The notes beneath the pieces are model-generated. The model saw nothing but the letters and a program-made list of their open reading frames with translations, ran no database searches and was not told the origin of the DNA. Of a stretch of DNA of 64,000 bases, positions 12,815-64,000 are shown piece by piece (the first letter of the stretch is position 1; the number at the start of each line of letters is the position of its first letter). Where the stretch lies: positions 22,010,001-22,074,000 of the forward strand of contig CM060731.1 in assembly GCA_030704615.1 (NCBI GenBank), read 5' to 3'. The translations under genes were made by a program, and so were the position numbers. This stretch comes from Takakia lepidozioides (Eukaryota; Plantae; Bryophyta).

Positions 12815-13292
12815 ATGGCAATTTTTCCAACACCACACGAGTCCCAGTTTTTGCTTTACATTAGAGAAGTGAAAGGAGAAGGCGATGGGGAGCCGAGCCC
12901 AGATTGGATCAAGGGGATTTTGGAGAAATACCAGGATGTGATGCCGGAGGATTTACCAAGCGGCTTGCCACCGCGAAGAGGAGTTGACCACAAGATCGAG
13001 GTGATACCGGGATCAGAACCGCCTGCCAAGGCGCCCTACCGGTTGAGCCACAGAGAGTTGGTCGAGCTGAAGACTCAGCTCAAGGATCTAATGTCAAAGG
13101 GATACATCCGGCCGAGTAAGTCACCTTACGGAGCCCCGGTGCTATTCGCAGACAAGAAGGATGAGACGCTGCGGATGTGTGTCGATTACAGGGCTTTGAA
13201 TAAGGTGACTCTTAAAAACCGGTACCCTTTGCCAAGGATCGACGACCTTTTCGACCGATTGGCAGGAGCGAAGTATTTCAGCCGGATCGACT
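12815..13292 (+). mobile_element. Ty3/gypsy pol fragment (N-terminal part of reverse transcriptase)
   Basis: [80 protein letters not shown]. Truncated abruptly at ~13292. Confidence 0.95.
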
Positions 13293-13293
13293 A

Positions 13294-14655: not shown

Positions 14656-14707
14656 CTGATTTTTTCATCGCATCTCAAGGATGATAGGATGATTCCACTC
14701 AATGGCT

Positions 14708-15017: not shown

Positions 15018-16096
15018 CGGAGTCATAACCACTGAGAGATCATCCCACAACCAAAGCAACTAGGAACAATGACAGCAACATCGCATTGTTTACATGTCAA
15101 TGACAAAATTGAACTGACCAGTATTTATTAGATATTTTATTATTGGTCAGACGAAAGGGCAAGTCTCTTGAGTTCATTAGCCAACGAAAAGGTATTTTGA
15201 ATGTGAAAGGTTACAAGTGCCATTTCTCCATCCTCAGATAAATACCCCTTAGCAACTTTCTATAGTCTTCATAGCTTAGGCTTGCTAACGATCCTCTTCT
15301 CTTAATGTAGATCCATGGTGATGGTGGATGATTTTGTAGTATCCTATAATGTTAGTCCCACTATGCATATATGTGGGTAGTGAGTATCTCTATAAAGCTT
15401 CTTACAAGGGCAAGGATTTTCATATGTACATAGGTGTGGAGGGTTTGTTGTACGTTGTTTTTATTTCTTGTTTTTGCATAGTTCACAATTTTTCTTACTA
15501 CGTTCCTCATATAAGAAAAGAGACACTTGAGTAATTGATACTTCAAACATCAAAATATCAAAATGCCAACAAATTCATCATCATTTTTTGATCAACTAAA
15601 CACTTTTGTGGCGGTACGAACAAGTAGGCCTGTGTGGGCCTTTCCAGGAATTAGCCCCCTTCAATCCCTCCAAATTCGCAAACTGTACACTTTTAGCTCT
15701 TATTTTTCTTGCTTGATTCATTGTCATTTTTCCAATATTAGGCATGGTTCAGAGTGGAACAACCAAAAATCCTTATGATCATTCGCTCGATTCGTAACTA
15801 ACAATGTTCTTCATTGCAGTTCATTGTTTGTGTTGTATTTCGAAGATCGAAATGCACGTATAAGCCTCCCTGGAATTAAAGTACTACACCTGAGAAAATA
15901 CGACGAAAAATAATCTACAACACAATATTTGTGAGTGAGGTACTTATTTCCAAATCTTAAGTTTGAGCTACTTACCGTACTACTCTTACACGACAAATGC
16001 ACATTTGCAATGCAGAAATGCACGAGTCGGTGAGAAAGGTTTTGCATAGCAAAAGTGACACTAGGGTGTGTGGGGCCATCGTTGAGCGAAAATACG

Positions 16097-16990
16097 ATGG
16101 TAAGGATTCACAAACGTAGAGAGCTCATATTGCCATTGAAACGAAAAGCTCTCCGTGTGATGCAATCAAGGTCACATGTGGACAATTTAATATCCAATTT
16201 CACAACCCATCTTTGCAAACGTGTGCGCAAAAGCAGATCTAGACTCTTTCCTCGTTGCATTCCTGCTAGTATATCTTATCACCAACAAGCCGGGGCACGT
16301 ATATGGCGCACAATTCTCCATTACCTCCAAATGAACAGACGTAATGAAGACTTGACATCACGCCATAGCATACCTCCCATCAGACCTCCCACCGTTTTTT
16401 CTCCTTCATCATGTCACCACGAACACGACGGTTTCACCACCATAGTGGACCTCCCGCCTATGAGGCGAGAGGATTGTGGCAAGAAGACTTTGGTGCTGGA
16501 TCTGGATGAAACCCTTGTTCATTCCTCCTTCAAGCCAATTCCACACTATGACTTTGTCATTCATGTGGAGGTTGAGGGCAGGATGACCACTGTGTACGTT
16601 CTTAAAAGGCCTTTTGTCGACCGTTTCCTTCACGCAGTGGCAAAAAGATTTGAGATTGTTCTCTTTACAGCAAGCTTGAAAAAGTATGCAGACCCACTAC
16701 TCGATCTTCTAGATGTAAACAGAGCTATTCAATATCGTCTCTACCGTGAGTCTTGTCGCACAATGGAGGGGGGATTGGTAAAAGATCTAGTTTGTCTAGG
16801 CCGCGACCTCCAAAAGGTGATCATTGTCGATAATAGTCCTCATTCTTACATGTTACAGCCCTCTAACGCAATCCCTATTGGATCTTTCATTGACAATCCC
16901 CGAGACCATGAACTGTTGGACCTTATTGACTATCTCGATGCCATAGCAGGGCTTGACAATGTTATGGACGCCCTCGGCAATCGAGCATGA
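16097..16990 (+). CDS. CTD small phosphatase-like (NIF/FCP1-SCP HAD phosphatase), intronless
   Basis: KKTLVLDLDETLVHSSF (DxDxT catalytic motif), YVLKRPFVDRFL, FEIVLFTASLKKYADPLLD, RLYRESC, KDLVCLGRDL, IIVDNSP. First ATG at 16097; the start could be at a downstream ATG. Confidence 0.9.
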   Translation: MVRIHKRRELILPLKRKALRVMQSRSHVDNLISNFTTHLCKRVRKSRSRLFPRCIPASISYHQQAGARIWRTILHYLQMNRRNEDLTSRHSIPPIRPPTVFSPSSCHHEHDGFTTIVDLPPMRREDCGKKTLVLDLDETLVHSSFKPIPHYDFVIHVEVEGRMTTVYVLKRPFVDRFLHAVAKRFEIVLFTASLKKYADPLLDLLDVNRAIQYRLYRESCRTMEGGLVKDLVCLGRDLQKVIIVDNSPHSYMLQPSNAIPIGSFIDNPRDHELLDLIDYLDAIAGLDNVMDALGNRA

Positions 16991-17660: not shown

Positions 17661-17766
17661 TACCTGTGGCAGCTCCTTGGTTTTCCCCTTTTTAAGGTCA
17701 GAGAAAAGAAAACCTCACAATAAAAGAGATATTAAAAACAATCGGCAACGCTTAATTTGCATGTGT

Positions 17767-17847
17767 GTCAATATGGCCGAGTTGGTCTAAGGCGCCAGTT
17801 TCAGGTACTGGTCCGAAAGGGCGTGGGTTCGAATCCCACTGTTGACA
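17767..17847 (+). tRNA. tRNA-Leu (anticodon CAG)
   Basis: Full cloverleaf: acceptor GTCAATA/TGTTGAC, D-arm GCC..GGC, anticodon stem CCAGT/ACTGG with loop TTCAGGT, long variable arm, T-arm GTGGG-TTCGAAT-CCCAC, discriminator A. Confidence 0.97.
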
Positions 17848-19537
17848 ATTGGTTGAAGGAAAGCAAATCATGGGAAGTGTATCTTGTTCCTAAGTATATG
17901 CCAACCACTGATGAAAAGTCGAATAACCAAACATGCCTTTTTCTCCTCTAGAATTGATATGGTGTCCATTACTATAGGTGCACTAATCAAAACTAATCAA
18001 TGGGGCCTTGGTATAGTAAAATTCCAGTGTATCACATTCATCCATCCTCGTACTTTTTTAAGTTCTCAATCAATAATAACAATGATCTTTTCTCCAACCT
18101 ATGATTTTAGTAAGTAAGGTCTAGTACCAACTCCAACCATGGGTGGAGAAAACAAAGTACCTCCCTACTTTAATTTTTATTTAAAAAAAAATTAAACAGG
18201 GGACAGATGCCCTGGAAGAACTTCTATGCGCTCTGTTGTTTGTGTATGATGGAATGATGTTGTTTTCCAAATACTCAAACAAATCGAATAAGAATGATGT
18301 AGTTTGACTCTTGGGGGACGACCAGTATTGACTTGAATCGTCTGGATAGGGTCTAGAAGGCACCAGAGTTCATTCATGACCTCTGGAATGGCAGCTTCTG
18401 TCTGACATCCATCTATCATTCCATTCATCATTCAATCAGAACTTGCAGTCAGAGCTTGCAGTGTACCTCATGCGGTTGGTACTGCAGCTGGATCAGCGGA
18501 ACAGTGTCTAGAGCACACTGGGATTTGTGCATGGGAAGCCTGGGCAAATCACCAACCTCTGTTTGGATCAACCCCACAGGGATAAGTCTATTCTATTCTA
18601 CTGTGCATGGCTGCTAGTGGCAGGCCTTCAAAGACAAGGCCGTGGCCACTAGGCCACAAACACTGTTCATGATCAATACTCTGGACAACAATCATCAACT
18701 CGCTGTCTTTCTTGTCTGGAAGTCAGACATGGGTTTTTTGGGTCCCTGCAGTGTGGTGGGGGGCAGCTTAAAACACTTATAATCACCTTTTGTTAGTTAA
18801 GTACTTGCAATATCTGGGTGGTCCTTCCCTTGAATGGCCCCCTTTTGAGGATTTGAAATTTTTCCCTCCCTCCAACAACTCCAAATAAAGTTTCCAGTGG
18901 CGGATCTCTCCTTCAAGTGGGAAAAAAGACAACAAAGATCTGAAATTCCCCTGTTTGGAATGAATGACTCAACCCTCCCATCCATCCATCTGTCCATCCA
19001 TACACAAAGCATCTTAAGTGACAGAAAGAATCAGGTGCGGTCAACAGTTGACCGTCGCCCTCGTATCACGGCGACGACAGACTCCGTCAACGTACACTTG
19101 CCGGAGCCGTGACATCCGGTACTCCCGTCCTTCCCGGCCGTCGATCTAACCGCTCTGACAACCCGCCACCTAACCCAGCGGGTTAATATTCGGTGGACCA
19201 CCGGCAACTGCCGGTGGTGGTAAGTATGTAGGTCCAAATATTTCGGCCATAAAGGTTGCTCGCCCACGACTGACTGCCGGGTTGATTTCTCATTTTACGT
19301 CTTTACTTTACTTTATGAGCGTGGCGCACGACCGGCTGCGGCCGGTTCCGTGGATGGCGGAAAAGTACACCCGAATATGCCGACATTATGTAGTTATTTA
19401 TGGGATTTACTATCTTAGTTTTGACATTTTGACTTGGTGCTGTCCTTTTTTTAGTGCTCGTTTCTAGTGGAAGCAAACCAGATTAGTCCGGGTAAGTAAG
19501 TCCAGTTCTACCTAGGCTTAATCCCTACATTACCACT

Positions 19538-21406: not shown

Positions 21407-23938
21407 TCACCAGTAATCCCCACAAGAACAAACCCCACCTTCAAAGTGGTGGAAGCGGGTGGTATCCCGTACAACTACAGCTCGCCCCACAATCTTCGAG
21501 ATGAACTTCGTGGCAGTATGGCAGTCACCACATATGCGAAGGTTCTTGATGACGCAGATCGGCATTCCAGGAGGTGTGCTGATTAGCCCGAAAGCAATGG
21601 CCAGCCTCTCACTGTGGTGGCAAAGAGAGAATTCTTTTTCTTCCTCCTCCAAATCATGTAATACAAAGTCTGTGTCAGGCACGTATCCCGCCTCCTTCAT
21701 CTGGCCAGACAGTCTCTTCAGTTCAGCATGGATTTCAGCAATATCTGGATGAAATCTGTCTTCCACAAGAAACGTATGCACCCGTTTATTGACCTCAATG
21801 AAGCTGCACCCTGGCTCCTTTCTGACACCTCTATCCTCCATCAATTTTCTCACCTTTGCTTTATCGTCCCACCTGCCAGTTGCCGCATAGATGTTTGATA
21901 GCAACACATAAGCTGTGGCATGCTGTGGATCACTCTTGAGAATGCTTTTTGCCACTCGTTCTGCCACCTCCAGGTTGCCATGAATTGTGCAGGCACCAAG
22001 CAAGGCCCTCCACACGCAACCATCTGGTTTGATTGACATTTTTGTGATGAAGTCCTCTGCCTCATCCAATTGCCCTGCACGACCGAGAAGGTCCACCATG
22101 CAGCCGAAATGCTCCACTGTGGGAATTACCCCATGATCTCGACTCATGGAGTCAAAGTAGTGACAACCTTCATCCACTAGGCCAACATGGCTACAAGCAG
22201 AGAGCAGAGATATAAATGTGATGCTGTTTGGTTTCAACCCTTCCCGTTGCATTTGTTCAAAAAATTGCAGGGCCTCCTTGCCACACCCATGCTGGCAACA
22301 TCCTGCGATCATGGCATTCCATGAGACCACATTTCGTGTAGCCATGTTGTTGAATACTTGACGTGCATCCGTCATGCTCCCACATTTGGCATACATATCA
22401 GCAAGAGCAGTATCCAAGTTAATGGATGACACAATTCTAGATTTGTTGATTTCAGTGTGGATCTCTTTGCCCTTCTCTATGGCTCCTACACTGGCACATG
22501 CATTGAGAATACAAATGTATGTGACCCTGTCAGGCATGACCCCTTCCTGTTGCATTCCCTCATACAACATGAAAGCCTCCCCACCACACCCATGCCGAGC
22601 ATAACCTGCAATCATGGCGTTCCATGAGACGACATCTCGTTTAGTCATATTGTCAAACACTTTACGCGCATCATCCATGCTCCCACATTTGGCATACATG
22701 TCAGCAAGGGCAGTCTCTAAATTTGTATATGACCCAATTCCAGCTTTGACGAGGTCAGCATGCACCTCTTTGCCCTTTTCCAGGTCTTGTAGACTGGCAC
22801 AAGCATTGAGAAGACAGACGTAAGTGACCCTGTCAGGCATCACCCCTTCTTGACACATTTGCTCATACATCTTGAAAGCCTCCCTGCCACATCCATGCTG
22901 AGCATATCCTGTGATCAGGGCATTCCACGTGACTACATTGCGTTGAGCCATGTGGTCAAACACTCGACGGGCATCCTCCATGCTCCTGCATTTCGCATAC
23001 ATGTCAGCAATGGCAGTCTCAAGAATGATATCTTGTGGAATTTCAGCTTGGATGATGTCCGCATGGACCTTTTTGCCCTTTTCCAGGGCTCCTAGGCAGG
23101 CACAAGCATTAAGAACAGAAAGGAACGTGACCCTGTTGGGTGTCACCGCTTCCTCTTTCATTTTCTCATACATCTCGAAAGCCTCCCCACCACACCCATG
23201 CTGGGTATATCCCCCGATCATGGCATTCCAGGAGACTACATTTCGTTCAGCCATACTGTCAAATACTTTATGAGCATCCTCCATGCTGCCACACTTGGCA
23301 TACATGTCAGCAAGGGCCGTATCCAAATTAATATAAGGTGCAATTCCAGCTTCCACAATGTCAGCATGGACCTTTTTGCCCTTTTCAAGGGCTCCTAGGC
23401 TGGCACACGCATTAAGAACACAAATGAAAGTGACCCTGTCTGGCGTCACCTCTTCCTGCTGCATTTGCTCATAGATCTCAACAGCCTCCCTACCACACCT
23501 ATGCTTGGCATATCCTCCTATCATCATAGTCCATGTGAACATATCTCGATCCGGCATTTTGTCAAACACTTGACGTGCAGCCACAATGCTCCCGCACTTA
23601 GCATACATGTTGATTAGGGTGTTGAGTAGAGAGATGTTTGGCCTGAATCCAGTTTGGATAATGTGGGCATGCACCTGTTTCCCCTCTGCCAGTTCTTTCC
23701 CGTCGGTGCATTTCTTTAAGACACAGACGTAAGTACTGGAGTCTGCCTGCAGGCCTGTCTGCTTCAAAATGTGGAGTGCCTCTTTCAGTCGTCCCACCTT
23801 ACATAGTGTCCTGACATCCTCACAAATGCTAGAGGAGTTCTTGCTCACCGCCTCTCTTGTCCCTCCATAAGAAGTCAAAGTGGTTCTACACCTGATGCTA
23901 GTCCCAACAAGCCCGTGTCCAGGATCGAACCCTGCCAT
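21407..23938 (-). CDS. PLS-class pentatricopeptide repeat protein with E1/E2/DYW deaminase domain (organellar C-to-U editing factor)
   Basis: 17 L/S/P motifs, PG-box KEPGCSFIEV, HSERLA, CGDCH, terminal DYW. First ATG at 23938 (the ORF track start at 23977 is GTG). Confidence 0.97.
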   Translation of the reverse strand: MAGFDPGHGLVGTSIRCRTTLTSYGGTREAVSKNSSSICEDVRTLCKVGRLKEALHILKQTGLQADSSTYVCVLKKCTDGKELAEGKQVHAHIIQTGFRPNISLLNTLINMYAKCGSIVAARQVFDKMPDRDMFTWTMMIGGYAKHRCGREAVEIYEQMQQEEVTPDRVTFICVLNACASLGALEKGKKVHADIVEAGIAPYINLDTALADMYAKCGSMEDAHKVFDSMAERNVVSWNAMIGGYTQHGCGGEAFEMYEKMKEEAVTPNRVTFLSVLNACACLGALEKGKKVHADIIQAEIPQDIILETAIADMYAKCRSMEDARRVFDHMAQRNVVTWNALITGYAQHGCGREAFKMYEQMCQEGVMPDRVTYVCLLNACASLQDLEKGKEVHADLVKAGIGSYTNLETALADMYAKCGSMDDARKVFDNMTKRDVVSWNAMIAGYARHGCGGEAFMLYEGMQQEGVMPDRVTYICILNACASVGAIEKGKEIHTEINKSRIVSSINLDTALADMYAKCGSMTDARQVFNNMATRNVVSWNAMIAGCCQHGCGKEALQFFEQMQREGLKPNSITFISLLSACSHVGLVDEGCHYFDSMSRDHGVIPTVEHFGCMVDLLGRAGQLDEAEDFITKMSIKPDGCVWRALLGACTIHGNLEVAERVAKSILKSDPQHATAYVLLSNIYAATGRWDDKAKVRKLMEDRGVRKEPGCSFIEVNKRVHTFLVEDRFHPDIAEIHAELKRLSGQMKEAGYVPDTDFVLHDLEEEEKEFSLCHHSERLAIAFGLISTPPGMPICVIKNLRICGDCHTATKFISKIVGRAVVVRDTTRFHHFEGGVCSCGDYW

Positions 23939-23939
23939 C

Positions 23940-26900
23940 CTGCATATCTCAAAACTCTCAGTTACAAACCTTTCCACTCAAACTCACATAATATACCTCA
24001 AAGCTCCTCTACACTCCTAGGAAAGATCTGGCCAAGACAACAGGCTGATATTGACAGGGTTGACAAAGTACAGTATTTTACTTTGAGAGTAAACTGTACC
24101 TATTCTATCTGTTTGCCTTGAAATCAATTGAATACCCACTAAGTTTCTTGGCCTACAGCTCCAGGGTGTACATCAACATTAGAAGAATCACCAGATTGTG
24201 CTTGACCTTGTATGATGGCAGCTAGTTCTGCTTTCACCCAAGGAGGGTTTGACCAACTCTCCATCCAAAAGACCTCCTTTGTACAGTTGTGTCGGAAGTC
24301 TGGCGATCTTGGACTTTTCTGTGACAACCACAAGGGGCCAGCTGAAATCATAGCCCCACATAGACCATGCTACAGCACCAAAGCTTCAAGCATTTTTCAA
24401 ATACGAGGGAGTAACCTTGAGTAACCTACCATCATGTCACATGAAGATGGAAGAAAAACCCACTGGTATGACTAGTGCAATGTGCTCTTGCTATTCTCTC
24501 ATGACAACAGAAATTCTCAGTACTCTTAAGACACCAGATACAACCCAGTCTACAGAACATCATCATGCCAGCTTTCTTCACAAACCATCCTGACAAACTC
24601 TCATGAAGATACCCTCACCTTCTCAAACCTGTTGTCCCACCACTGCGAAGGATCTCCGAAGAACTCCTGCCAGAGCAGTTCTCTGGTCATTGCTTGACCT
24701 GAGTGCAAGAGAATCCAGAAGATAAGCAATTTGCTAGCATCCCATTGCCTCAGTTTCTGCTTAGGCCCAATGGTAGTGATTTAGAGCTGGTTTCTAGTGC
24801 ATCCTTCGTTTGTTATGTATTCATCCCATAAAATCTTTTGACTTCTCACAAGGTTCCTTTCTTTTCCCTCCACCTGTAATTCACACTACTGGAGTGAGCC
24901 CCTCACAAAGGTAATCTCTATTCCCTATGTTCCGTCCAAACTGGGTGAGGGGTCTATGGCCACAAGGCTACAGCAAACAAAGTCTTTATGAGAACTTCCT
25001 TTCACCTCCACTGAGAAGTGCTACTCTTTGTCTGACTCATGACAAAGAAACACACAAGCATACCAAAAAATACTGGATTTGAATAAGTTACTGTAGGAGC
25101 TTGTGGTAGCAAGCCACCCTCAAAGCCATGCCGATTCATATTCACGTTCCTCCATATGCACGGACCACCATCGCATCATCCTAATCATGGCAGCTGCATC
25201 TGCTTTCACCTACAAGTCTCAACTAACTCTCACTCGACTTCCTCAATGGCCTCCTACTTGTGCTTAAATATGCAGTCTGGTGATCTCTTTCTATCTTACC
25301 ATGCTTTTCTCAAGTTCAGTGTGACTAGCACTTCAATCACAGCCACGTATCACATCTGTTTCAGATCGGGAGCTAAAGCGTGACGGCTGTATTGCGTGCA
25401 ACAGGACTGCCACTGGCTGTGAACGAGCACTATGCCGTTTTTGGGTCGTGTCATTATCAACGATGGCAGGAACGGTCAATGAGTACATCGCTCTCTTCCC
25501 ATTATACCAGAGAAAAATACCAGAAGTTTCAGGAAATACCGAATAAGCTGGAGAAAGGAACACAACCATGTGGATTACCCTCACGTTCCTCTGCAGCCCC
25601 CTTGTACGACCCTTCACAGGATCGACCGAACTGGATGCAATGTCTGCTGGTATGGATCAAGAACAAAGATTGGCCGAACGCGCACAATTTAGAGACAAAG
25701 ATAATACGCAAGGATTTGCAAGTCCATACATTTATATTGTTATTGCAGGCGTCAGAGTCATCAGTCCAAGGGACTTGGGCCCCGCCTTAAGAGAACAGGG
25801 AAGTGGGTGTGTACACTCGTTGCACGCTCAGTAGAGCAAACAAGTGCATTCTGTTGCCTCTGTCAAACCTGTCTCTTGGCAATCGCTAATCGAGATTGGA
25901 GGAGTGTCCCATTGATGATAAGAAGCTCCATCCGAAACGAGAAAGTGTGCCCACGAATGCGGATGTTGTGAATTGTGAGCCCTTGAACTGGGTGGAGTGA
26001 ATTGTCACTCAGGTCAGAGTTTTCCACGTTATTTGGAAGTGTCACTGCACATTTATTGCATTTCAGATGAAGAGCGCAAAGTGAACCCTCACAATACCCC
26101 TACATGAGGAAAATAGCATCATTCAAACGAAAGTAGCACTTTTTCAGTAGGCATTGTTACCGGGCGAGGATAGTGTCGAGGCAATGTTGGATCAGGATGC
26201 CTTACGCCCACTTCGTCCTTTCAAAGACCCTGCGTGACCAGAGTTGTGCAAACATGATATATAGGGAGAGGCACTTTTCTTTATCGGGCTCTCGAGTGTG
26301 AATTCCGGCCCATCTCGTCTCTACTCTAGTACAGGCACAGTAATGGCAGAGTGCTCTTGCCCTCTCCTGAACGTGGAGGGGGAGGCCATGCGCAAGGTCC
26401 CGTCTTCTCCTTGCGGTGAACGGGCGGGAGGCCTCAATCATGCAGCAAACCACAGGGCGAGGGTGAGAACGGAAATGGCCATCCACCTCCGCAATATGGA
26501 GCCAGAGGCCCTTGCAAGTGATGGCTATGACGTCTTCCCAACCTCCAGGGGAACCGAGTAAAGGTAGAGCGTATAAATCTTTGCGCATTTGTCTGGCCCC
26601 TGCACCTAACGACAATGTGGTGACAGGTTTATTTATGTAAGGACTGATATACACACTAAGGTAAGAAAGGCTGTCACAATTGAGAACAATGGTAATTCTA
26701 GCCCCCAATCTGACAGACGACTGTGATCGCACTTCCAATCTCACTTTGCTTGAGAGAAGGTGGGAGAGACAGCACAAAGAAACGATCTGTACATTCAAAC
26801 ACATGGAGAGACACAGCGGTACATATTTTCAAAGCCTACACTAGTATTCCTCAATAATACTCAGGCTTAGGCCCTGGGGCATTCTAAGGACCCATTTTTT

Positions 26901-28226
26901 TCTAGTCTCTCCTGCAGATAAGAAACAGTATTAGAGAGTCTTTGGCAGACATACAAAGAATATTGCTTTGTCAGAGCAAAGCTGGTTTTGATATAGATCT
27001 GTAACTCATTTTTGGAGAGTGTTGTTGGTCCAACAGCATTGAAGTTGGTGCGGTGAAGTCATGTCCATTTTTTTGAATCAAGGCTTGTGGAGCTTCGGTG
27101 GTTGTTGCCTGGTCTTATAAGGCAGTGGTTACAGCTATTGCTGCTCAGAGTCACACCCATGTTCGTCACAGGAAACTGCAATGTCACCAGACTTTAAACA
27201 GAAGTGCACGAGGGAGGTGCTTTGGATCCAGAGTCTGTCTCCCCCACGTGGGTGAAGGCATAGCTACCTACCCGGGCACAAGGCTTAGCACATGGTGGAT
27301 GGATATCAGTGTATGGCTCTTAGTCTGCTGTGAATATTGGAGCCTTGTTGAAGTTTGAGAGTCCAGACGCTGTGGGAATGTCAGATTTGGAAAACAGGAG
27401 CTGTGAAGGAAGTCTTCCTCCATATCTGTAACATTCAGTAGGGTGGCTATTTCTTGTGTGCATGAGGCCATTCCTCAATACAGACTGAGGCAGTTTGGAA
27501 GCTGGCAAAGTTCTCATGTTCATGCTCTTCTTGAACGCAGGTCAAGCAATGAGCATAGAACAAGAGTTCTTCTTATATCCTTCACAATGGTGGGGGAACA
27601 GGTTTGGGAAGGTGAGGCTATCTTCCTTGAGAACCTGAAAGATTTTGTCAAGGAGGTCTTTGATTCGAGCCATAAAGAATCAAGTATGAAGATGTTTTGT
27701 CAAAGGGATTGTATCTCCAGTTGCTTTGATCACCAATATAGTAAGAGCAACAGTAGGATTCCCTTTCGCTATTTGAGAGATGCTTGTAGCATGACATGTT
27801 CTATCTGGGGCTGTCAGTGAAGCCATGGCTTCTCACCTCCCCTCGTGGTTTTGACAGAGAAGTCCAAGATCACCAGGCTTCAGAGACACATGCACAAAAG
27901 AAGTCCTATTGATTGAGAGTTGGTCAAATCCTCCTTGGGTTGAAACAGAGCTAGCTACTACAATACAAGGTCGAACACAATCTGGTGATTGTTGTACTGG
28001 TGATGTAAACTGTGGAGCTGCAGGCCGAGAAGTCAACAGGTATTGTTTTTGATGTAATTCGAGGTTATCAAAATAGACAGATAGAATTGTGACAATTTAT
28101 TCCAAAGTAGATCACTGCAGCAAATATCCATCCTATTAATATGTAGCGAGAAGCTTGTCCTCCATTTTGAGATATCTAAGAGCTTTGTGATCTGCGAGTT
28201 TGTCACTAAGAATTTGAGTCAAGCAG
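23940..28226. repeat. Inverted duplication of PPR upstream regions (arms ~24120-24780 and ~27460-28060) flanking a unique spacer
   Basis: For example, 24186 AATCACCAGATTGTG...CCCAAGGAGGGTTTGACCAACTCTC matches the reverse complement of ~27915-27990, and 24605 GAAGATACCCTCACCTTCTCAAACCTGTT matches the reverse complement of ~27597-27626. Confidence 0.85.
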
Positions 28227-28227
28227 G

Positions 28228-30774
28228 ATGGAAGGCTTGAATCAGGTACAGTTATTTGTTGGAACTCAGACGCGCAGCAGGGGGAGCACCTCCACCCTTG
28301 TCACTCCTATTGAAAGAGTATCAAGAGAGGGAGGCAACAAGAACTCCTCTGGAACCTGTGGGAATGTGAGGAGACTATGTAAGGCAGGACGATGGAAAGA
28401 GGCGCTGCACATCCTGAACCAAGGAGGCATTCAGGCAGACTCGAATACTTATGTCTGTGTCTTGCAGGAGTGCACCAATATGAAAGACCTAGCAGAGGGA
28501 AAGCAGGTGCATGCCCACATTATCCAAAGCGGATTCAAGCCCAATATTTTTCTCCTCAACACCCTCATCAACATGTATGCCAAGTGTGGGAGTGTGGTGG
28601 ATGCACGTCAAGTGTTTGACAAAATGCCTGACCGAGATATGTTCACATGGACAATAATGATAGCAGGATATGCCAAGCATGGATGTGGTAGGGAGGCTTT
28701 GGATATCTATGAGCAAATGCAAAGGCAAGGGGTGACGCCTGACAGGGTTACGTTTATATGTGCACTCAATGCTTGTGCCAGCCTAGGAGTTCTCAAAAAG
28801 GGCAAGGAAGTCCATGCTGACATTATCAAATCTGGAATTGTGCCAGACATTGTTCTAGAGACTGCCCTTGCTGATATGTATGCCAAATGCATGAACATGA
28901 AGAATGCGCGTCAAGTGTTTGACAATATGGCTCAACGAAGTATTGTCTCATGGAATGCCATGATTACAGGCTATGCTCGGCATGGGTTTGGTATGGAGGC
29001 TTTTGAGATCTATGATCAAATGCGACAGGAAGGAGTGACTCCCAACAGGGTCACGTTCATTTGTATTCTCAACGCTTGTGCCCGTCTAGGAGCTCTAGAA
29101 AAGGGTAAAGAGGTTCATGCTGACATCAGCAAAGCTGGAATTGTATTATGCATTCATTTGGGGATCGCCCTTACTGACATGTATGCCAAATGTGGAAGCA
29201 TGAGGGATGCACATGAAGTGTTTGACAGTAGGGCTCAACGAAATGTGGTCGCATGGAACATCATGATTGCAGGATATGCTCAGCATGGCTGTAGTAGGGA
29301 GGCTTTCGAGATATATGAGCGAATGCAAGGAGAAGGGGTGACTCCTGACTGCATCACGTTTACTGGAGTTCTGAGTGCGTGTGCCAGTCTAGGAGCCCTG
29401 GAAAATGGCAAGCAGGTCCATGCTGACATTAGGAGAAGTGGAATCGTGCCAGATATCATTGTCGAGAATACCCTAGTTGACATGTATGCCAAATGTGGGG
29501 CCATGAAGGAAGCACGTCAAGTGTTTGACAATATCTCAGAACGGGATGTTGTGTCGTGGAATGCCATGATCACAGGGTATGCTCAGCATGGGTGCAGTAG
29601 AGATGCTTTTGAGATGTATGAGCTGATGCAAGGGGATGAGGTGGTGGCCGATAGGGTCACATTCATCTGCCTTCTCAACGTGTGTGCCGCCCATGGAGCC
29701 CTGGAAAAGGGCAAAGAGGTCCATGCGGACATTATCAACACTGGAATTGCATCTAACATCAATTTGGAGACTGCCCTTGTTGACATGTATGCCAAATGTG
29801 GGAGCATGAGGAATGCACATCAAGTGTTTAACAGTATGGTTGAACGAAATGTGGTCTCGTGGAGTGCAATGATCACAGGATGTGGCCAGCATGGGTGTGG
29901 TAGGGAAGCACTGCAACTTTTTGAACAAATGCAACAGGAAAGGTTGGATCCAAACGGTATCACATTTATATCCCTGCTCTCTGCATGTAGCCATGTTGGC
30001 CTAGTGGATGAAGGGTGTCACTACTTCGATTCCATGAGTCGAGATCATGGCCTCACTCCCACAGTGGAGCATTTCGGCTGCATGGTGGACCTTCTAGGCC
30101 GTGCAGGGCAACTGGAAGAGGCAGAGGACTTCATTAAGAAAATGCCTATCAAACCTGATGCCAGGGTGTGGAAGGCCCTGCTTGGTGCCTGTACAATTCA
30201 TGCCAATGTAGAGTTGGCAGAACAAGCAGCAAAAAGCCTACTCAAGAGTGATTCACAGCAGCCTGCAGCTTATGTGCTGCTATCGAATATCTATGCTGCA
30301 ACTGGCAGGTGGGATGATACAGCGAAGGTGAGAAAATTGATGGAGGAAAGGATTGTCACAAAAGAGCCAGGGCTTAGCTTCATTGAGGTAAACCACGGGA
30401 TTCATACATTCATTGCTCAAGACAGATTGCATCCAGAAATTGAGGAAATCCATGCTGAGCTAAAGAGATTGTCTGGACTGATGGAAGCAGCAGGGTACGT
30501 GCCCGATACACACTCTGTATTGCATGATTTAGAGGAGGAGCAGAAAGAATTTTCTCTCTGCCACCACAGTGAGAGGCTGGCCATTGCTTTTGGCCTATTC
30601 AGCACACCCCCTGGGACGCCTATCCGGGTCATCAAGAACCTTCAGGTTTGTGGTGACTGTCACACTGCCACCAAATTCATTTCGAAGATTGTTGGACGAG
30701 AAGTCATTATACGGGATGCCAACCGCTTTCACCACTTCCTTGATGGGGCTTGTTCTTGTGGGGCCCACTGGTAA
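28228..30774 (+). CDS. PLS-class PPR protein with DYW-type domain (terminal AHW variant)
   Basis: 17 L/S/P motifs colinear with the paralog at 21.4-23.9 kb. KEPGLSFIEV, HSERLA, KNLQVCGDCH, ends CSCGAHW. Confidence 0.97.
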   Translation: MEGLNQVQLFVGTQTRSRGSTSTLVTPIERVSREGGNKNSSGTCGNVRRLCKAGRWKEALHILNQGGIQADSNTYVCVLQECTNMKDLAEGKQVHAHIIQSGFKPNIFLLNTLINMYAKCGSVVDARQVFDKMPDRDMFTWTIMIAGYAKHGCGREALDIYEQMQRQGVTPDRVTFICALNACASLGVLKKGKEVHADIIKSGIVPDIVLETALADMYAKCMNMKNARQVFDNMAQRSIVSWNAMITGYARHGFGMEAFEIYDQMRQEGVTPNRVTFICILNACARLGALEKGKEVHADISKAGIVLCIHLGIALTDMYAKCGSMRDAHEVFDSRAQRNVVAWNIMIAGYAQHGCSREAFEIYERMQGEGVTPDCITFTGVLSACASLGALENGKQVHADIRRSGIVPDIIVENTLVDMYAKCGAMKEARQVFDNISERDVVSWNAMITGYAQHGCSRDAFEMYELMQGDEVVADRVTFICLLNVCAAHGALEKGKEVHADIINTGIASNINLETALVDMYAKCGSMRNAHQVFNSMVERNVVSWSAMITGCGQHGCGREALQLFEQMQQERLDPNGITFISLLSACSHVGLVDEGCHYFDSMSRDHGLTPTVEHFGCMVDLLGRAGQLEEAEDFIKKMPIKPDARVWKALLGACTIHANVELAEQAAKSLLKSDSQQPAAYVLLSNIYAATGRWDDTAKVRKLMEERIVTKEPGLSFIEVNHGIHTFIAQDRLHPEIEEIHAELKRLSGLMEAAGYVPDTHSVLHDLEEEQKEFSLCHHSERLAIAFGLFSTPPGTPIRVIKNLQVCGDCHTATKFISKIVGREVIIRDANRFHHFLDGACSCGAHW

Positions 30775-42583: not shown

Positions 42584-43582
42584 TCATGCCTGCTTCTGCT
42601 GCCGCATCTTCTGAGAGCGCAGCTGTCTGAGCTCATCTCGTAGCTTTGCAGCATCACGGTAACGTTCCTCCACAGCTGCAATCATCATGCTCCGCACCAG
42701 CACAAATTCTGCGGCTGCAGCACAAGAGTCTGACTCCGGCCTATCCAATTCAGTTAGTACATGCCCTGCACTGGACCGCAGAGAGCGAGCGGGCAGCCTC
42801 GCAGGATCGCTTACAATGCGCACTCCATCCCCCAAGGCCAGCTCCTTGTTCACTTGGATTGGGATCTTGCAGCGAACCGCAAGATTGATGGCGTCCGACG
42901 GCCGCAGGTCCAAGCTCACGGCTTTCTGCAACTCGTCCCCCTCTTTTGCAAGGTACAGCCGAGCATAGTAGGCCTCGTTCACTCTCCGCGTGACGCGCAC
43001 CAGCTTAGCCTTGTAGCCCATGAGCTCCAGCATGTCCCTCATTACTTGATACACCGTGGGCCTTGCAACTTGGACATTGCGCACAGCCTCCATGAGCATG
43101 GTGCTAGGCAATTCTAACACAATTATGGGAAGGAGGAGGTTGGAGCCATCTTCCATCTGGAGAACAATGGCAGGCTGCGGAGCATAGTCAGGCAGATGAC
43201 CTCCTTCAGGGTTGTTGTGTGCGCACTTGACAAGACGGCCATCCCGCATCTTCATCACGAACCCCTCCGGACCACTCTTCACCTCGACCGCTTCCACAAC
43301 AGTGGAGTTAACATAATCTTCATCGTTCTCACTGAACCCCTCAGCAGTGCTCCCATTGTTAAACGACATGCTGGAGTTACACGATATGGATTGCCTCACG
43401 TCCGCACTATTCCCCAGCCTCAGGGAGGCCGGTATGGCCGTGAAGCGCGCTCCTCCAAGCTTGCTGATTTTCAGTGGCCCACCCGGCGCCCAGGCCACTG
43501 CCATAGCCAGGTTCTGCTGCAGCCCCATAGATGCGGGGCAGTGCATCACGCTCATGGCCGCCGTCTGCGTTAATGCCACCAT
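42584..43582 (-). CDS. BBD: Bifunctional nuclease (DUF151/BFN domain + UVR helix), intronless CDS
   Basis: FSENDEDYVNSTVVEAVEVKSG, GGHLPDYAPQPAIVLQMEDG, LLLPIIVLELPS, ARPTVYQV, DLRPSDAINLAVRCKIPIQVN, AAVEERYRDAAKLRDEL. Confidence 0.93.
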   Translation of the reverse strand: MVALTQTAAMSVMHCPASMGLQQNLAMAVAWAPGGPLKISKLGGARFTAIPASLRLGNSADVRQSISCNSSMSFNNGSTAEGFSENDEDYVNSTVVEAVEVKSGPEGFVMKMRDGRLVKCAHNNPEGGHLPDYAPQPAIVLQMEDGSNLLLPIIVLELPSTMLMEAVRNVQVARPTVYQVMRDMLELMGYKAKLVRVTRRVNEAYYARLYLAKEGDELQKAVSLDLRPSDAINLAVRCKIPIQVNKELALGDGVRIVSDPARLPARSLRSSAGHVLTELDRPESDSCAAAAEFVLVRSMMIAAVEERYRDAAKLRDELRQLRSQKMRQQKQA

Positions 43583-44731
43583 CTCACCCCACCCCACCCC
43601 GCAGCAGAGCTCCACAACAGAACCGCACCGTCTCCCAGGCCTCCCAACCTGCGCACACCGGTTCTCACTACCCACCAGAATCAAGCAAGCCGGAAGGCCT
43701 TGGACCTCCCTCACAGCATCTCACAAGCAAGCAACAAGCAAGCAAGGCTGCAGTCTGCAGGCAGGGACTTCTAAACTCTAAACACCTGCCTGTTAAAATT
43801 TGCTCAGCAGGACACCAGATCCAGCAAAGACACTGCCGTCTCTTCTGTCAGACTCTTCTGTCACTGCACGATGCTCTGACAGCCTGCTCACAGCCTCAGA
43901 AGAAGGAGAAATTGAATGCAAGAGCAGCAGAGATGGCGTGCTGGGCAGAAAAAGCTCATCACAACCCCACCACAGCCATATCAGCTTCAAATCCAAGTAA
44001 AAATCCCAAACCACTCTTTAAACTGATCCAATCCTTCCCCCTCGATTCTCTCAATTTCAGAAAAGCAAGCAGGCGCTGCAAATCCTCAGCAGGCCACTTG
44101 CGCAATCAAAGCAGCAAACAAATGAGGCTACAAGCCTACCTACCTACATGCATCCCATCCCCTCATCTCACTACTCGCCGTCTTCATCTTTCCACACGAC
44201 CGGTTCAGATGAGGCATATTCACATCCAACGATCAGGGTCTGCTGATTTTGTTGTATGGTAAAAAGATGGGTCCGCATGATAAAGTGCTCACGCTACCGT
44301 GAATCTTTCTGGGGCATCTTGTACACGAGATTCTTATCTTTTTTTTTCTTTTTTTCGTTGTTTTTCCATCCATTGATCAGTCAGGATGTGAGCGGGGACG
44401 AGCCCACGGGGGAACGGTGTCGTGTAGAGAGTATTTATAGGTGCAGCAGCAGAGAGTTATCGGCAAACAATATGGGATAATGAAGTCCAAGGTGCGGCGG
44501 TGGGCCAGACGAATATCCTGCCTTCCTTTTGTCAAAATCAACTGATTCAGGTCCCTCAAATTCTTTGGATTCATATTCCGATAGCTGCGCAACAGAGCTT
44601 GTTACCTCTCTAACTATGAGGCTGTTGCCTGTGTGGAGGATAAGGGTTAACTTAATGGGATCACTTTTGCTCAATTTTTTTTTGGTTGTTTTTAGAAAAC
44701 AACAGGCCCTCCTCAAGGACCTGAATAAGTA

Positions 44732-56700: not shown

Positions 56701-57059
56701 TTTTTACCTCGGTTGTCCCACCATTGACTGGGGTCAGAAAAGTATTCATTCCACAGCTTCTCCTCGTCTCAGCTGTTACATGTTTTTGGATACTTCCATG
56801 TTGTCACATTGGCAGTACCATGTCAAAGTCGCTCCAAACTATCAAAGGCTCACTCAACCAGCTAACTTGCAGAATTCAACATGAAAATTTAGGGCCGATT
56901 CTGATAAGAGGGAAAAACAGGGTGAAATGTGTTGAAGAAGGTGCTTTCATTACCAGTGCCTGAGTTTATCATTGTGCCGCTGCTACTGCGGCTTCTAGTT
57001 GACCAGTCACCATCTACCCATGCAGGTTTCTTGTAGCTATTGATCCATTTGGTACATTT

Positions 57060-59628
57060 CCAGCTTTGGTGATGAATTATACACCTCCAATGCCCTTTTC
57101 CAGGGCTGCCAGGCTTGCACACGCACTGCAAACGCACACAAACATGATGTGGTTGAACTTCACCCCTTCCCCCATCATTTGCTTTCAGGTCTCCAAAGCC
57201 CCATACAGCGCCCCTGCTCTGCACACCCTGCAAACATCACATTCCACAACACCACATCTCATTCAGCCATAGTGTTGAACACTCCCTTGGCATCCTCAAT
57301 GCTACCATATTTGGCATACATGGCCACCAGAGCAGTGTTCAGGATGACATCTGGAACAATTGCAGATTTGATCATGTACCAGGGATCTCTTTGCCCTTTT
57401 CCAGGGATGCCAGACACACTGCAAACACACACAAACCTTATGTCGGCGGGCTTCACCCCTTCTCCCATCATTTGCTCATAGGTTGGAGCCTCCATCCCGC
57501 ACCCCTGCTGTGCATACCCCGCAAGCATCGCACTCCACGACACCACATCTTGTTCAGCCATAGTGTTGAACACTCCCTTGGCATCCTCGATGCACCCACA
57601 TTTGGCATATATGTCCACCAGGGCAGGGGCAGTGTTCAGAATGACATCTGGTAATCTGACAAACATTCTCCTTTTAGAATTGTTCCAGCAAATGCCCCAA
57701 CCCTACTGACTTAGAGGTTGTAGTGTCCAAAGCCATGTCCGTTTCCAGAAAATTGTCTGATGAAAATGAAGTTAGGCAGAAAACTTCCCTGGACTTGTTT
57801 CCAGTCTGTGACATGGGGGAGGACATCATGGATGACCTCAAGGGTCTACCCACTCTCGCTACCAAACTGAAATTTAAACAAAGAGCAGGAATCCTACCTT
57901 TGAATAGCAAACAGAAGCAGAGAGGAAAGGGAGAGTGCAATTGCACCCAACTCAACTTATCGCACTAGTTCCTATGATCAATTGCATCTGCTACACTCTG
58001 TAATCTGACAGGCATTCACCTTTTTGCCTCGGTTGTCCCACCAGTTACTGGGGTCAGAAAAGTATCCATCCCACATCTTCTTCTCATATCTATTACCTGT
58101 TTTTGGATACTTAGGGACGACTCTAATAGCAGGGGAATTCAGGGTGAAATATGTTGAAGAAGGTACCTAATTCATTAGCAGTGGGCCTTGTTCTATCAAT
58201 TGCGTTGTTGCCATTGCTTTTACCAATTGACCATCTACCCACTCGTAGCCATTGTGCTATTGAAGAAGGTGGCCCCCCTTCCCCCATCATTTGCTCATAG
58301 CTCTCCAAAGCCTCCATCCCACGTCCCTGCCGTGCATACCATGCAAGCATCGCACTCCACGACACCACATCTCGTTCAGCCATAGTGTTGAACACTCCCT
58401 TTGCATCCTAGATGCACCCACATTTTGCAAACATGTTCACCAGGGTTTTGTTCAGGATGACATCTGGTACAATTCCAGCTCTGAAGATGTCGCCATGGAC
58501 CTCTTTCCCCTAAGTTGCCAGGGCAGTGTTCAGATTGACATTTGGCACAATTCCAGCTTTGATGATATCCCCATGCACCTAGATTTGCCCTTCATTTCAC
58601 ATACACCTCCACCAGGGTATGGTTCAGACTGACATTTGGTACAATTCAAGCTCTGAAGATGTCGCCATGGACCTCTTTCCCCTTTTCCAGAGCTGCCAGG
58701 GCAGTGTTCAGATTCACATTTGGTACAATTCCAGCTTTGATGATATCCCCATGCACCTCTTTGCCCTTCTCCAGGCCGGCTGCCAGGCTTGCACAAGCAT
58801 TGCAAATGCACACAAACATGATGTGCTTCCCCAATCATTTGCTCATAGCTCTCCAAAGCCTCCATCCCACGTCCCTGCCGTGCATACCATGCAAGCATCG
58901 CACTCCACGACACCACATCTCGTTCAGCCATAGTGTCGAACACTCCCTTTGCATCCTAGATGCACCCACATTTTGCAAACATGTTCACCAGGGTTTTGTT
59001 CAGAATGACATCTGGTACAATAATAACTCTGAAGATGTCGCCATGCACCTCTTTCCCCTAAGATGCCAGGGCAGTGTTCGATTGACATTTGGCACAATTC
59101 CAGCTTTGATGATATCCCTATGCACCTCTTGCCCTTCTCCAGGGCTGCCAGGCTTGCACGCACATTGCAAATGCACACAAACATGATGTGCTTCCCCCAT
59201 CATCTGCTCATAGCTCTCCAAAGCCTCCATCCCACGTCCCTGCCGGGCATACCCTGCAAGCATCGCACTCCACGGCACCACATCTCGTTCAGCCATAGTG
59301 TCAAACACTCCCTTTGCATCCTAGATGCACCCATATTTTGCAAACATGTTCACTAGGGTATTGTTCATAATGACATGTGATACAATTCCAGCTCTGAAGA
59401 TGATGCAATGGACCTCATTCCCCTTTTCCAAAGCTGCCAGGGCAGTGTTCAGATTGACATTTGGCACAATTCCAGCTTTGATGATATCCCCATGCACCTC
59501 TTGCCCTTCTCCAGGGCTGCCATGCTTGCACAAGCATTACAAATGCACACAAACACGACGTGTTTCCCCCATCATTTGCTCATAGGTCTCCAAAGCCTCC
59601 ATCCCACGTCCCTGCCGTGCATACCCTG
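57060..59628 (-). pseudogene. Tandemly amplified, frameshifted PPR (P-L-S) module array
   Basis: Repeated YAKCGCIEDAKGVFNTMAERDVVSWSAMLAGYARQGRGMEALESYEQMMGE and LEKGKEVHGDIIKAGIVPNVNLNTAL blocks in shifting frames. Highly similar DNA units at ~57467, 58285, 58835, 59197 and 59570. No E/DYW domain. Confidence 0.9.
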
Positions 59629-60759: not shown

Positions 60760-62348
60760 ATTTTAGTGGTTACAAGTGAGCACATAGATGTATTCCATGG
60801 AGATAAACAAAACTGTTCATCCGGTGTCTTCACGGTGGATGTATCCCATGGAGCGTTACATGAAAGATCTTAAGGGATACGTTAGGAATTACGCAAAGCC
60901 AGAAGGGAGTACGGCTGCAGGGTATGTTCTGGATGAGGCCATGGGGTTCATGACTACGTATATGCAATCATTTGATGCAACTCAACAACGGACTTGGGAT
61001 GCAAATGCGGAGGAAGGGGTTGAGGACGAGGTCTTCGAAGGTGTCGGCAAAAAGCGGGACATGACTGGAGCTGGGAAAATTTTGTATGTGCTGAACAATA
61101 CCAATGTCATGGCTCCTTGGACGCAGTGAGTACTTCTTTTCATTGCACCTTATTCATATCAAGTTCAATTTCAATTCTGACTGTCACCAGTGTAATCAAA
61201 CCACCCACAAAGTCACAAATGTCAGTAGTTTATCCAGATTATAACCAATGTTGTAGTAACGGAATGTCTGAGTGAGTGACTTGTTGGAAGAGCATGTTCA
61301 TTTACAAGTCATTCTGCTCACTCTTCCAGTGGTTTGAAACAGTGGTTTTCAAAATATCATTCATGCTAGGTATTTTTTGCTAAGTAATGCAATACTTCAT
61401 TGCTAACATGTGTCATTCTTGTTGCCATTTTGTGACAAAAAGTATGCAGCAGAGAAGGCACAGTTCACAGCAGACAGAGAAGCATGTGGTGATGAGTGGC
61501 GTGCCAATCGACGTCTACCTTATCAGATCAGCCAATACCTAGGTCATTAGATGGTCCCACGGCTCTAAATAAAGAAGATCTGGCTATGTTGGCTACCATT
61601 CAAGCGGCATTTGTGCAACCAACCGCTATTCCAGTTGAGCAAAGTGATTCAGAGGGTGACGAATATGTTTCAGATTCAGAATAAAATTTATTGTTGGAAC
61701 CATTTGTTCAATAGCATCATCCCACAATGGTCTGGCCACTTGTCTGTTTTTCAAAGTCTGTCACAGCTACACAAACCACTTAAAGTTTTTCATGTATCAC
61801 CCAAAAAGTGGTACCAATCACTGTTGTGTAGGCAACCACTCATGAGCAACCACTAGTATAGTGGTTCCAATTACTGCAGTATCTTTCACCACCCACTCTC
61901 CACCACTGTCAAAGTGGTACAAATCAATGAGGTGTCTTTAACCACTCAAGATCAACGTGCACTGTCCCCGTCCACGTGGAATATTATATTTATGAACTAA
62001 AATATATTTCCAAATAATAAATCACAAATAAAATTTGAATTATTACACGTGGAGTAGGAAGTGGTTTCAACCACTTCCCATCGATGAGGTGTCTATAACC
62101 ACTCACTATGTACCACTGCACTCGTCCACGTGGAATATTATATTTATTAATTAAAATGTATTAGCAAATAAATAATAATAAATAATAATAAATAAAAACA
62201 AATTATTACACGTGGACTACTGAGTGGTTGAAACCACTTCCAACCACTGTCTGTGATGCCACCGTGGCATTTCATTGGTGGTTTATAGAGTGGAAAAAGA
62301 CAGTAGTGGTTAAAGGGCCAGTGGTTATTCCACGTTTTTCTTCTAGTG
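60760..62348 (+). mobile_element. CACTA (En/Spm) transposon 3' portion with transposase (DUF4218-like) fragment
   Basis: ORF 60788-61129 PVSSRWMYPMERYMKDLKGYVRNYAKPEGS. ACCAC/GTGGT-rich subterminal repeats include a ~155-bp direct duplication (61928-62245). The element terminates ...TTTTCTTCTAGTG, the reverse complement of CACTAG. Confidence 0.85.
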
Positions 62349-64000
62349 TGAGCAGTACTCCCTGCCTGCTCAATCAATGACAAGGCCTCATCCTGCCCCA
62401 TCATCTCATCCTTGAGGACCTCCTCAACCCGAGAAGAATCCCCAACCTCATCCATCACAGCCGCCTTGGCTCCCAACTCCCTTGAACCTCGAGCACCTCC
62501 CACGTGTGCCATAGATGTTTACACCCCGTGGTCCTCACTTGCTCGCCCCCACTCACTACTTGTACCATCTCGGTAGGCAGAGAGACCGTAAAGGGAAGTG
62601 CACTCCGCACTCTACGTTGCTCAACCATAGCCAAGCTGATAATCCAGGTCAAGCAATTGAGATCCATCGCTTGCCCCAACACCCGACGACGTGATGCCTC
62701 AGAAAGAAAAGGCACCACCGTGGTCCCAGTGGAAAAACCCATAGCCCGCTTTTGCTCGTCGGCATTAGGCTCCACTAACTGCTGCAACTGAGCATCCTAC
62801 AGGAGGTCAGGTCCACTATCTCGGAAAGCATGCGATCCTGGGAAGCTGAGCAGTGTAGGTGGTGTTGCTCATGGTTGACCCACCTTGTTGACCACTGCCA
62901 AAGGCGAACAGTCATCGTGTCTCACACGCTGAGACTGCCTCCCTGTGTACAAAATGCTATTCACTATGAGGTGTGCAGGCCGCTGCACCCAATCAAATGC
63001 ATGCTTGAACAGTGCGGGTGACATCAAGTTAGTCCACCATAACCGTGGACGATAAGCCTGTAACCCCACTGCAGCTGCATCCAGCAACACTGCTGACCCA
63101 AGCCACGACCAAACTTGATGCACACTGGCCATCACCCTGGCCGGAGAATCGCCCATCAGTGGCACATTCTCCAAGATGTATGCTGGAGATACAACTTGAT
63201 GAAGCTGTAAGTGGCGCAAAACCCGCACCATCTCTCAAAACAGACCCGACCTCGAGTCTCGCAATCCATTGTCATGCCCGGCTGATGAATGCCCTTGGCG
63301 GGGCCAACCTGCCACTACCAGATCAATGGAGCCAACCCACTCCAAATCCTGCGCTCCCAGCAACGAAATGTCAAGTCCTGCTGATATCCACGAACTGCAG
63401 ACACCGGCAACAACTCAGGGTATTGTTGCACCAACTGAGCAACATGGCGTAGGGAGATGCGTCGTGCGGTCTTATCCCTCTCCACATAGAGGTAACGCCA
63501 AACTCTTTACACATGCCTATAGAACAGCAGCCAACTCGGTGCTGATCCCACCAAACAAGTTTAGAAGGCAAATGCCTTCATCCGGACACTGCCACATGAT
63601 CGGTGTGGTATCCAATGGTGACAACTAAGGTGGTCCTGGTGCAATTTCCGTACTGTCCTCTTCTCCTGACGGTACAAACGCCTCTACCCAGGCTTATTGC
63701 ACACGACAATCAGCAACCCGATACAAATCCTTGCTCGAGCCCTACAATGGAGTGTGAGCAACCATGGCAAACAACTACGCCATACCATACATGTCATCAT
63801 GCTCTTCCGAAGGTGACACATCCTCTGAATGAGTGTTGTCATCCAACAACTCTCCAGGCCAAGTCACTGCAGCTATGAATGCTGCCAATGTCGGCATCTT
63901 GCCTCGTTGGGCAACCGCAATTCCTCCTATAAACATCATAGGGAGCTGCACATGTCGGCCCTCCCCTGACTGCCCTCCAGGGCTATAGGAAGCTGACTCC
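62349..64000 (-). pseudogene. Decayed C5 DNA-cytosine methyltransferase domain within a probable retrotransposon polyprotein
   Basis: Across stops and frameshifts: motif I LLNLFGGIS, II YLYVERD, III DI, IV DLVVAGWP[R]QG, V GLRDSRSGLF, VI YILENV, VIII QAYRPRLWWTN, IX EQKRAMGF..G.T, X RRVLGQAMD. Intronless, with coding-like sequence continuing on both sides. Confidence 0.85.

Follow-up and report, generated by a model that had tools for sequence, protein, structure and literature searches.

A dead copy of a Ty3/gypsy retrotransposon family carrying a DNMT3-like methyltransferase in a land-plant genome

The locus and its surroundings

The window, the whole stretch of 64,000 nucleotides analysed here, ends in a minus-strand sequence (62349–64000) that is almost certainly a dead, CACTA-truncated copy of a Ty3/gypsy family with a DNMT3-like DNA methyltransferase (DNMT) between protease (PR) and reverse transcriptase (RT). 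The following parts were recognised.

63576–64000, minus strand: linker from the aspartic protease to the DNMT of a Gag-PR-DNMT polyprotein, matched by tblastn to Marchantia protein P0003 from residue 735; it leaves the window just behind the protease
62620–63575, minus strand: DNMT3-like C5 cytosine methyltransferase domain, intronless and inactive here, recognised by PF00145, motif order, and Calypogeia protein P0001
62349–62619, minus strand: linker after the DNMT, homologous to P0003 up to residue 1243 and interrupted by the CACTA element some 13 bases short of where the family has its conserved stop
60830–62348, plus strand: CACTA DNA transposon, right end, cutting the retroelement short, with a terminal repeat at 62333–62348 and a DUF4218 fragment

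The first-pass annotation had reported ordered C5 methyltransferase motifs on this strand, and all six that it named are present in canonical order, namely LFGGIS (63558–63541), GWPRQG (63309–63292), ENV (63171–63163), RPRLWW (63051–63034), RAMGF (62748–62734), and LGQAM (62679–62665). The Pfam model PF00145 (DNA_methylase) matched the window at E 1.4e-8 with 35 bits against a cut-off of 22. By tblastn, positions 63999–62494 align to residues 735–1243 of P0003 with 49% identity (E 1e-124) and without intron-sized gaps, in agreement with the intronless reading. As this alignment runs past both edges of the domain, the coding-like parts noticed on either side are real homologous linkers. The protease motif LLDSGAQP precedes the corresponding linker in relatives. 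The DNMT domain shares 66% identity with Calypogeia P0001.

The copy is inactive and is itself incapable of any of the steps proposed below. It contains eight in-frame stops, four in the 63576–64000 part and four in the DNMT domain, as well as three frameshifts near 63505, 63372, and 62483, and arginine occupies the position of the catalytic cysteine of motif IV (PCQ to PRQ). At 85 of the 161 sites that differ from other family contigs of the host sequencing run X1, the window has A/T and the others have G/C, which fits decay by cytosine deamination. The CACTA end proposed to cut the copy at 62348 was confirmed by its terminal repeat and by the DUF4218 transposase fragment behind it (about 60833–60991, plus strand, E 1.5e-14). 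Neither a second CACTA terminal repeat nor the RT, RNase H (RH), and integrase (INT) of the family was found across the 64-kb window.

The sole RT match in the window belongs to an unrelated gypsy fragment (13019–13291, within 12815–13336, plus strand), which is about 33% identical to the DNMT family. An intronless gene for a bifunctional nuclease (42584–43720, minus strand) has its best named matches in the liverworts Marchantia paleacea, Riccia fluitans, and Calypogeia fissa (81–82%, over the core), with mosses below them at 60–62% in longer alignments, and this closeness supports the land-plant setting assigned to the DNA from its letters. Two intact, intronless PPR-DYW editing-factor genes lie in opposite orientation at 21407–23977 (minus) and 28210–30774 (plus), with a third, decayed copy at about 57000–59400, in line with organelle RNA editing in the host. 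The window also contains a 366-codon open reading frame (ORF) without a Pfam match (13564–14664, minus), which may be a remnant of a LINE ORF1, an intronless ORF with a DLDETLV motif (16034–16990, plus), which we take to be CTD-phosphatase-like from this motif, and a tRNA-Leu(CAG) gene (17766–17848, plus).

The family and its methyltransferase domain

A protein search with the window DNMT returned 30 matches among 3199 candidates, comprising 18 from Marchantia, two each from Calypogeia and Sphagnum, one from Monoraphidium, and seven unnamed. Proteins P0006 and P0016 contain RT and RNase H besides the DNMT, and an integrase is present in P0022. The metagenome loci analysed are the best 80 of 129 stretches, and their linker text is of the type of Sphagnum fallax P0022 (hereafter moss-type), except for L033, which represents a separate family. 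Gag, protease, DNMT, RT, RNase H, and integrase are collinear in 21 of the 80 loci by a manual table count. The Pfam order in L033 is zf-CCHC and DNMT, followed by RT, RNase H, and integrase (rve, H2C2), and a PHD finger was detected behind the integrase in L077 (E 3e-8). Assembled from relatives, the domain order reads Gag(CCHC)-PR-DNMT-stop-RT-RH-INT-PHD, and the Ty3/gypsy linkage suspected for the window copy is thereby borne out in relatives.

A wider search among 1.84 billion proteins gave 221 clusters at E ≤1e-30. Two layouts occur among the 175 of 227 proteins that cover most of the domain, one with the DNMT before the RT and the other reading RT-RH-DNMT-INT (44 complete), often with a PHD finger. 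Chlorophyte gypsy polyproteins with the DNMT between RNase H and integrase include P0336, P0337, P0341, P0345, P0029, and many unnamed ones. The DNMT has changed its position within one gypsy group, and the named members of the DNMT clade include Closterium and Chlamydomonas eustigma. Klebsormidium had no named match in the protein searches for DNMT relatives. A protein of 1770 residues, P0346, combines a distant DNMT of this type with an RNase H of the DIRS kind and may belong to an element of the SymbioDIRS type. A quick tree of 68 rows, which omits 11 near-duplicate or partial rows and includes 16 of the 44 RT-RH-DNMT-INT proteins drawn at random, places the window together with Marchantia, Calypogeia, L003, and L033 in one group of 10 rows (SH-aLRT 100); none of the rows is a host DNMT3, DRM, or Klebsormidium sequence, and the tree is hence silent on the origin of the domain.

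Among PDB sequences, the L033 DNMT matched DNMT3A best (E 3e-11), with DRM at 4.5e-4 and HaeIII at 1.3e-4, and DNMT3A/B are the best solved relatives of the domain. The predicted structure of the relative P0156 (pLDDT 89, 45% identical) gave a fold match to DNMT3A at E 1.3e-20. Because of these sequence and fold searches, assignment to the DNMT3 type, with unpermuted motifs, is supported. Between the window and five loci, identity at the three codon positions is about 0.69/0.81/0.45, with dN of 0.25–0.31 and dS above 2.3, and between L033 and four loci the dN/dS of the DNMT is about 0.17–0.20. Judged from these codon changes, purifying selection on the DNMT is shown between families.

The reading of the window DNMT as a processed pseudogene of a host DNMT3 or DRM gene, or as a bacterial or viral contaminant, can draw on the absence of introns and on the DNMT3 affinity of the best solved relatives, and is extremely improbable. 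Retroelement linkers flank the domain on both sides, the motifs are unpermuted, the family is highly repeated, and the window groups with the bryophyte element DNMTs in the tree. DUF3444, which plant DNMT3s carry according to the available excerpt of PMC6453930, had no Pfam match in the window. The bacterial relatives (13 loci on bacterial genome contigs) reach only 25–31% identity, and 30 loci on viral contigs are phage methyltransferases only, with weak, partial matches (E 8e-12 or worse). Both the pseudogene and the contaminant readings were rejected. The bacterial loci (L111–L123, from Bacteroidota including Flavobacterium and Chitinophagaceae) encode methyltransferases with a DNMT3-like AHRxRxYWTN motif and are possible bacterial sisters of DNMT3.

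The multi-copy nature anticipated for the family is evident in the host runs, since 14,261 contigs of run X1 match the 2.5 kb of window positions 61500–64000. Summed contig depth in X1 is 1.7e5–1.2e6 over the element, 2.6e4–5.1e4 over the CACTA end, and about 60–100 for listed single contigs; such a sum is inflated by overlapping short contigs and does not equal copy number. We infer hundreds of copies or more in the host. Run X1 further contains contigs with at least 80% similarity to portions of the L033 RT, RNase H, and integrase, with a summed depth of up to 5.5e5. No contig spanning DNMT and RT was listed when host runs were searched on L033, and a 2173-base contig of run X6 that extends 1814 bases beyond the CACTA junction has no match to the L033 RT at 80%; we infer the DNMT–RT linkage in the host. 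The CpG observed/expected ratios did not separate the element from genes. Two contigs of 1724 and 1428 bases, from two runs that belong to two studies and are guessed to be RNA, share a 37-base DNMT match (L033:3975–4011) and the same flanks and are without a match to the window copy; they may represent an expressed divergent paralogue or a chance match.

The stop behind the methyltransferase and the element ends

Among the 80 loci, 53 are readable from the end of the DNMT to the start of the RT, three being skipped for insertions and 24 being without one side. A stop occupies the identical place in all 39 in-frame loci. In any frame it is present in 52 of the 53 (36 TAG, 16 TAA, and one TAC instead), or in 43 of 44 after near-identical loci are merged, and the next codon is CAA in 50 of the 53. 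In L033, a Gag-PR-DNMT frame of 1297 codons, interrupted once by an internal stop, ends at TAG-CAA-CCA, and RT-RH-INT continues in frame behind it. Beyond the CACTA junction at 62349, host contigs (36 in run X1, 11 in run X3) reach TAG-CAA-CCA in frame at a matching distance, the stop following GQAMDL by about 114 codons in the window family and 113 in L033. Of 30 Gag/PR-DNMT proteins, 24 end 53–177 residues past the DNMT domain, whereas in the distant relatives P0173, P0182, P0308, and P0179 the DNMT runs into the RT without a stop. The polyprotein context proposed by the first-pass annotation thus holds for the Gag-protease frame, but the DNMT ends before the conserved stop and is not situated within an uninterrupted Pol.

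UAG-CAR-YYA is the readthrough signal of TMV, and UAA followed by these codons is decoded as well (PMC2754532, PMC3159437, as excerpted). The conserved UAG/UAA-CAA-CCN is probably read through at a low rate, and such readthrough would therefore place the DNMT at the level of Gag and the RT and integrase at a few percent of it. An alternative that accepts the stop as genuine has pol expressed through a spliced RNA or by re-initiation at an ATG close by, and it appears distinctly unlikely. The moss-type loci read CAA-CCC, missing the last A of CAR-YYA, and in most of them an ATG follows two codons later, as re-initiation would need; however, L033, L040, and the host contigs past the junction have no ATG just after the stop, and TAG-CAA-CC and the frame are retained across three families. 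Splicing could be read from the gene models P0013, P0022, and P0009, which bypass the stop by an intron, but the starts and ends of these introns vary. Ogre elements splice at the corresponding place.

The termini are known from the moss-type relatives alone, which are 66% identical to the window. The moss-type element has a repeat A (about 340 bases) at its start and a repeat B (115 bases), preceded by a G-rich (polypurine) tract, at its end. The end consists of B alone in about 20 loci, of B-A-B in L045, L077, L068, and L060/L063, and of B-A in L003 and L061/L062, and the whole A-coding-B-A-B with both flanks is found only in L045, L077, and, in part, L060. As for the earlier designation as an LTR retroelement, the gypsy domain order stands in relatives, but an ordinary pair of identical direct LTRs is not their form, the repeats being split into an A start and a B or B-A-B end. 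At L013:1678–2014, an A repeat (starting TGTCATG) lies inside the region of another copy and is followed by unrelated sequence, a nested or truncated insertion.

In 13 of 22 loci, compared with 0 of 440 controls, the 11 bases that follow A can pair with a site located about 31 bases past a TATA-like box. An 11-base complement is a feature of self-priming elements, and the one observed is as expected for putative self-priming of reverse transcription. Self-priming is known for Tf1/Sushi and Tcn1 (PMC6317226, as excerpted). The LTR-like unit in priming would be B-xx-A, and the integrated ends would sit at its inner B/A junction. This junction is palindromic, with a 2-base self-complementary spacer in all four clean cases (GC twice, AT twice), and the A/B junctions differ in all four independent cases, one of them retaining letters of the primer site. 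End-joined two-LTR circles show such variable junctions. Ten loci with two ends, after two rows with a missing end were dropped, gave an exact 4-bp target duplication in seven, a duplication with one mismatch in two, and none in one. Because of the palindromic B/A junction, the variable A/B junctions, and the 4-bp duplications, integration of a circular cDNA by the DDE integrase can be proposed, a suggestion we place just short of an even bet.

A-coding-B-A-B could also stem from linear integration with later recombination or nested insertion, or in part from an assembly artefact, and this view keeps an appreciable minority share of our confidence. The loci are contigs of short-read metagenomes, the complete form is confined to the three loci named above, and one site occurs in two forms, L027 (B alone) and L067/L068 (B-A-B) having common flanks, so that assembly collapse or B-by-B recombination explains some of the B-only ends. 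However, exact 4-bp duplications enclose the entire A...B-A-B in L045, L060, and L077, the spacer is self-complementary in all four clean B/A junctions, the four A/B junctions all differ, and the same repeat order has been published for KnitGypsy-Dnmt3 (PMC5890265, as excerpted). A tyrosine recombinase was sought in L077 and L045, and six-frame listings inspected by eye contained no further long ORF resembling one.

Proposed role and comparison with known systems

Taken as a whole, it is very probable that the window contains a dead copy of a repeated gypsy-DNMT family, in whose active members the enzyme was likely produced in the amounts of Gag, would enter the particle, and likely methylated the element's own cDNA. 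By the leaky UAG/UAA-CAA-CCN, Gag-PR-DNMT would be abundant and RT-RH-INT scarce; the DNMT would be packaged with Gag and freed by the protease inside the particle, where it could methylate the new cDNA de novo. The new copy would then carry methylation from the moment it inserts, and the integrase may steer it in chromatin through its PHD finger. In moss-type relatives, reverse transcription would be self-primed, with B-xx-A as the true repeat unit, and the cDNA would circularise, after which the DDE integrase may open the circle at the palindromic B/A, yielding A-coding-B-A-B and a 4-bp target duplication.

Methylation of the element's own cDNA is, on balance, the role we favour. Premarking of the cDNA and escape from recognition as foreign DNA are both hypotheses in the excerpted text of PMC5890265. 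The DNMT might otherwise act in trans on older copies or host chromatin and damp transposition, or bind nucleic acid in the particle non-catalytically, which seems rather unlikely. An amount at Gag level, as read from the conserved stop, would exceed the need of one cDNA, and PMC5890265 lists a host-benefit model and reports that the KnitGypsy DNMT gave no methylation in yeast, a result called inconclusive there. Against these roles stand the catalytic cysteine in 76 and the ENV glutamate in 79 of the 80 related loci, counts biased by the picking of loci with patterns over these motifs, and the Gag fusion, which would put the domain where cDNA is made.

Methylation of cDNA in the particle would also belong to a broader picture, which we offer as speculation and consider improbable in its entirety. 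An old green-plant gypsy lineage, spanning chlorophytes, Closterium, liverworts, and mosses, would make a Gag-stoichiometric de novo DNMT3 through a leaky stop, methylate its cDNA in the particle, and use a DDE integrase to insert circular cDNA via an att site that lies mid-LTR, and the Klebsormidium element would be one member of it and not a private capture.

A transposon carrying its own silencing enzyme has been a puzzle since 2018, studied only in algae that are hard to handle. Since many annotated Marchantia proteins belong to the family, the puzzle can be tested experimentally in a model land plant for which methylation mutants exist. From the conserved stop, both the amount and the place of the enzyme can be predicted, at Gag level and in the particle, and the repeat anatomy suggests a DDE integrase acting on circles. 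Retroviral work has largely set aside integrase action on circles. Elements with unlike ends would escape finders of LTR pairs, so counts of transposons and DNMTs in bryophytes may be off.

The closest known system is KnitGypsy-Dnmt3 of Klebsormidium nitens (de Mendoza et al., 2018; PMC5890265), described as an acquisition in that lineage with DIRS-like repeats. It shares the Gypsy domain set, an intronless, unpermuted Dnmt3-like domain under purifying selection, and the split A-coding-B-A-B repeats, here found in the moss-type L045, L077, L068, and L060/L063. In contrast, it resides in an alga, whereas the present family occurs in land plants (liverworts, peat moss), and its DNMT lies in the Pol ORF by the wording of the paper, whereas here the DNMT ends the Gag-PR ORF before the stop. 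A readthrough context, a PHD finger, self-priming, and circle junctions are absent from the excerpted text, and the comparison is one of descriptions. SymbioDIRS-Dnmt3, whose domain methylates CG de novo in yeast (PMC5890265, same excerpt), likewise combines a retrotransposon-borne Dnmt3 domain with A-coding-B-A-B repeats, but has the tyrosine recombinase of DIRS elements instead of the DDE integrase (rve, H2C2) and 4-bp target duplications seen here. EpiLTRs/DAM-LTRs (10.64898/2026.05.21.726589, as excerpted) are also LTR elements combining a methyltransferase with a chromatin reader; they carry DAM, a DNMT4-sister domain, and a chromodomain (Cymbomonas, Euglena), whereas one DNMT3-like domain and a PHD finger are present here.

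Host plant DNMT3/DRM proteins (excerpt of PMC6453930) have the DNMT3-type catalytic fold and motifs in common with the window domain, which differs in having no DUF3444, introns, or permutation and in being embedded in a polyprotein and highly repeated. TMV-type readthrough (excerpts of PMC2754532 and PMC3159437) is matched by UAG-CAA-YYA in the host family and L033, but not by CAA-CCC of the moss-type family, and the present case is known from sequence alone. The available portions of PMC12344493 and 10.64898/2026.05.21.726589 speak, for such elements, only of 'streptophytes', citing PMC5890265, and those of PMC6453930, PMC10952607, PMC6317226, PMC10508981, 10.1101/2022.06.16.496473, and 10.1101/2021.11.30.470311 mention no such element of liverworts, mosses, or chlorophytes. 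In the literature at hand, itself partly excerpts, no such element was found described in liverworts, mosses, or chlorophytes, though Marchantia genome or methylome papers, Repbase, or supplementary trees might mention one, and no description was found of a conserved stop or circle junction in such elements. Relative to these systems, the novelty lies in a known kind of element occurring in a land plant, with its enzyme placed before a conserved stop and with a testable model for its odd ends.
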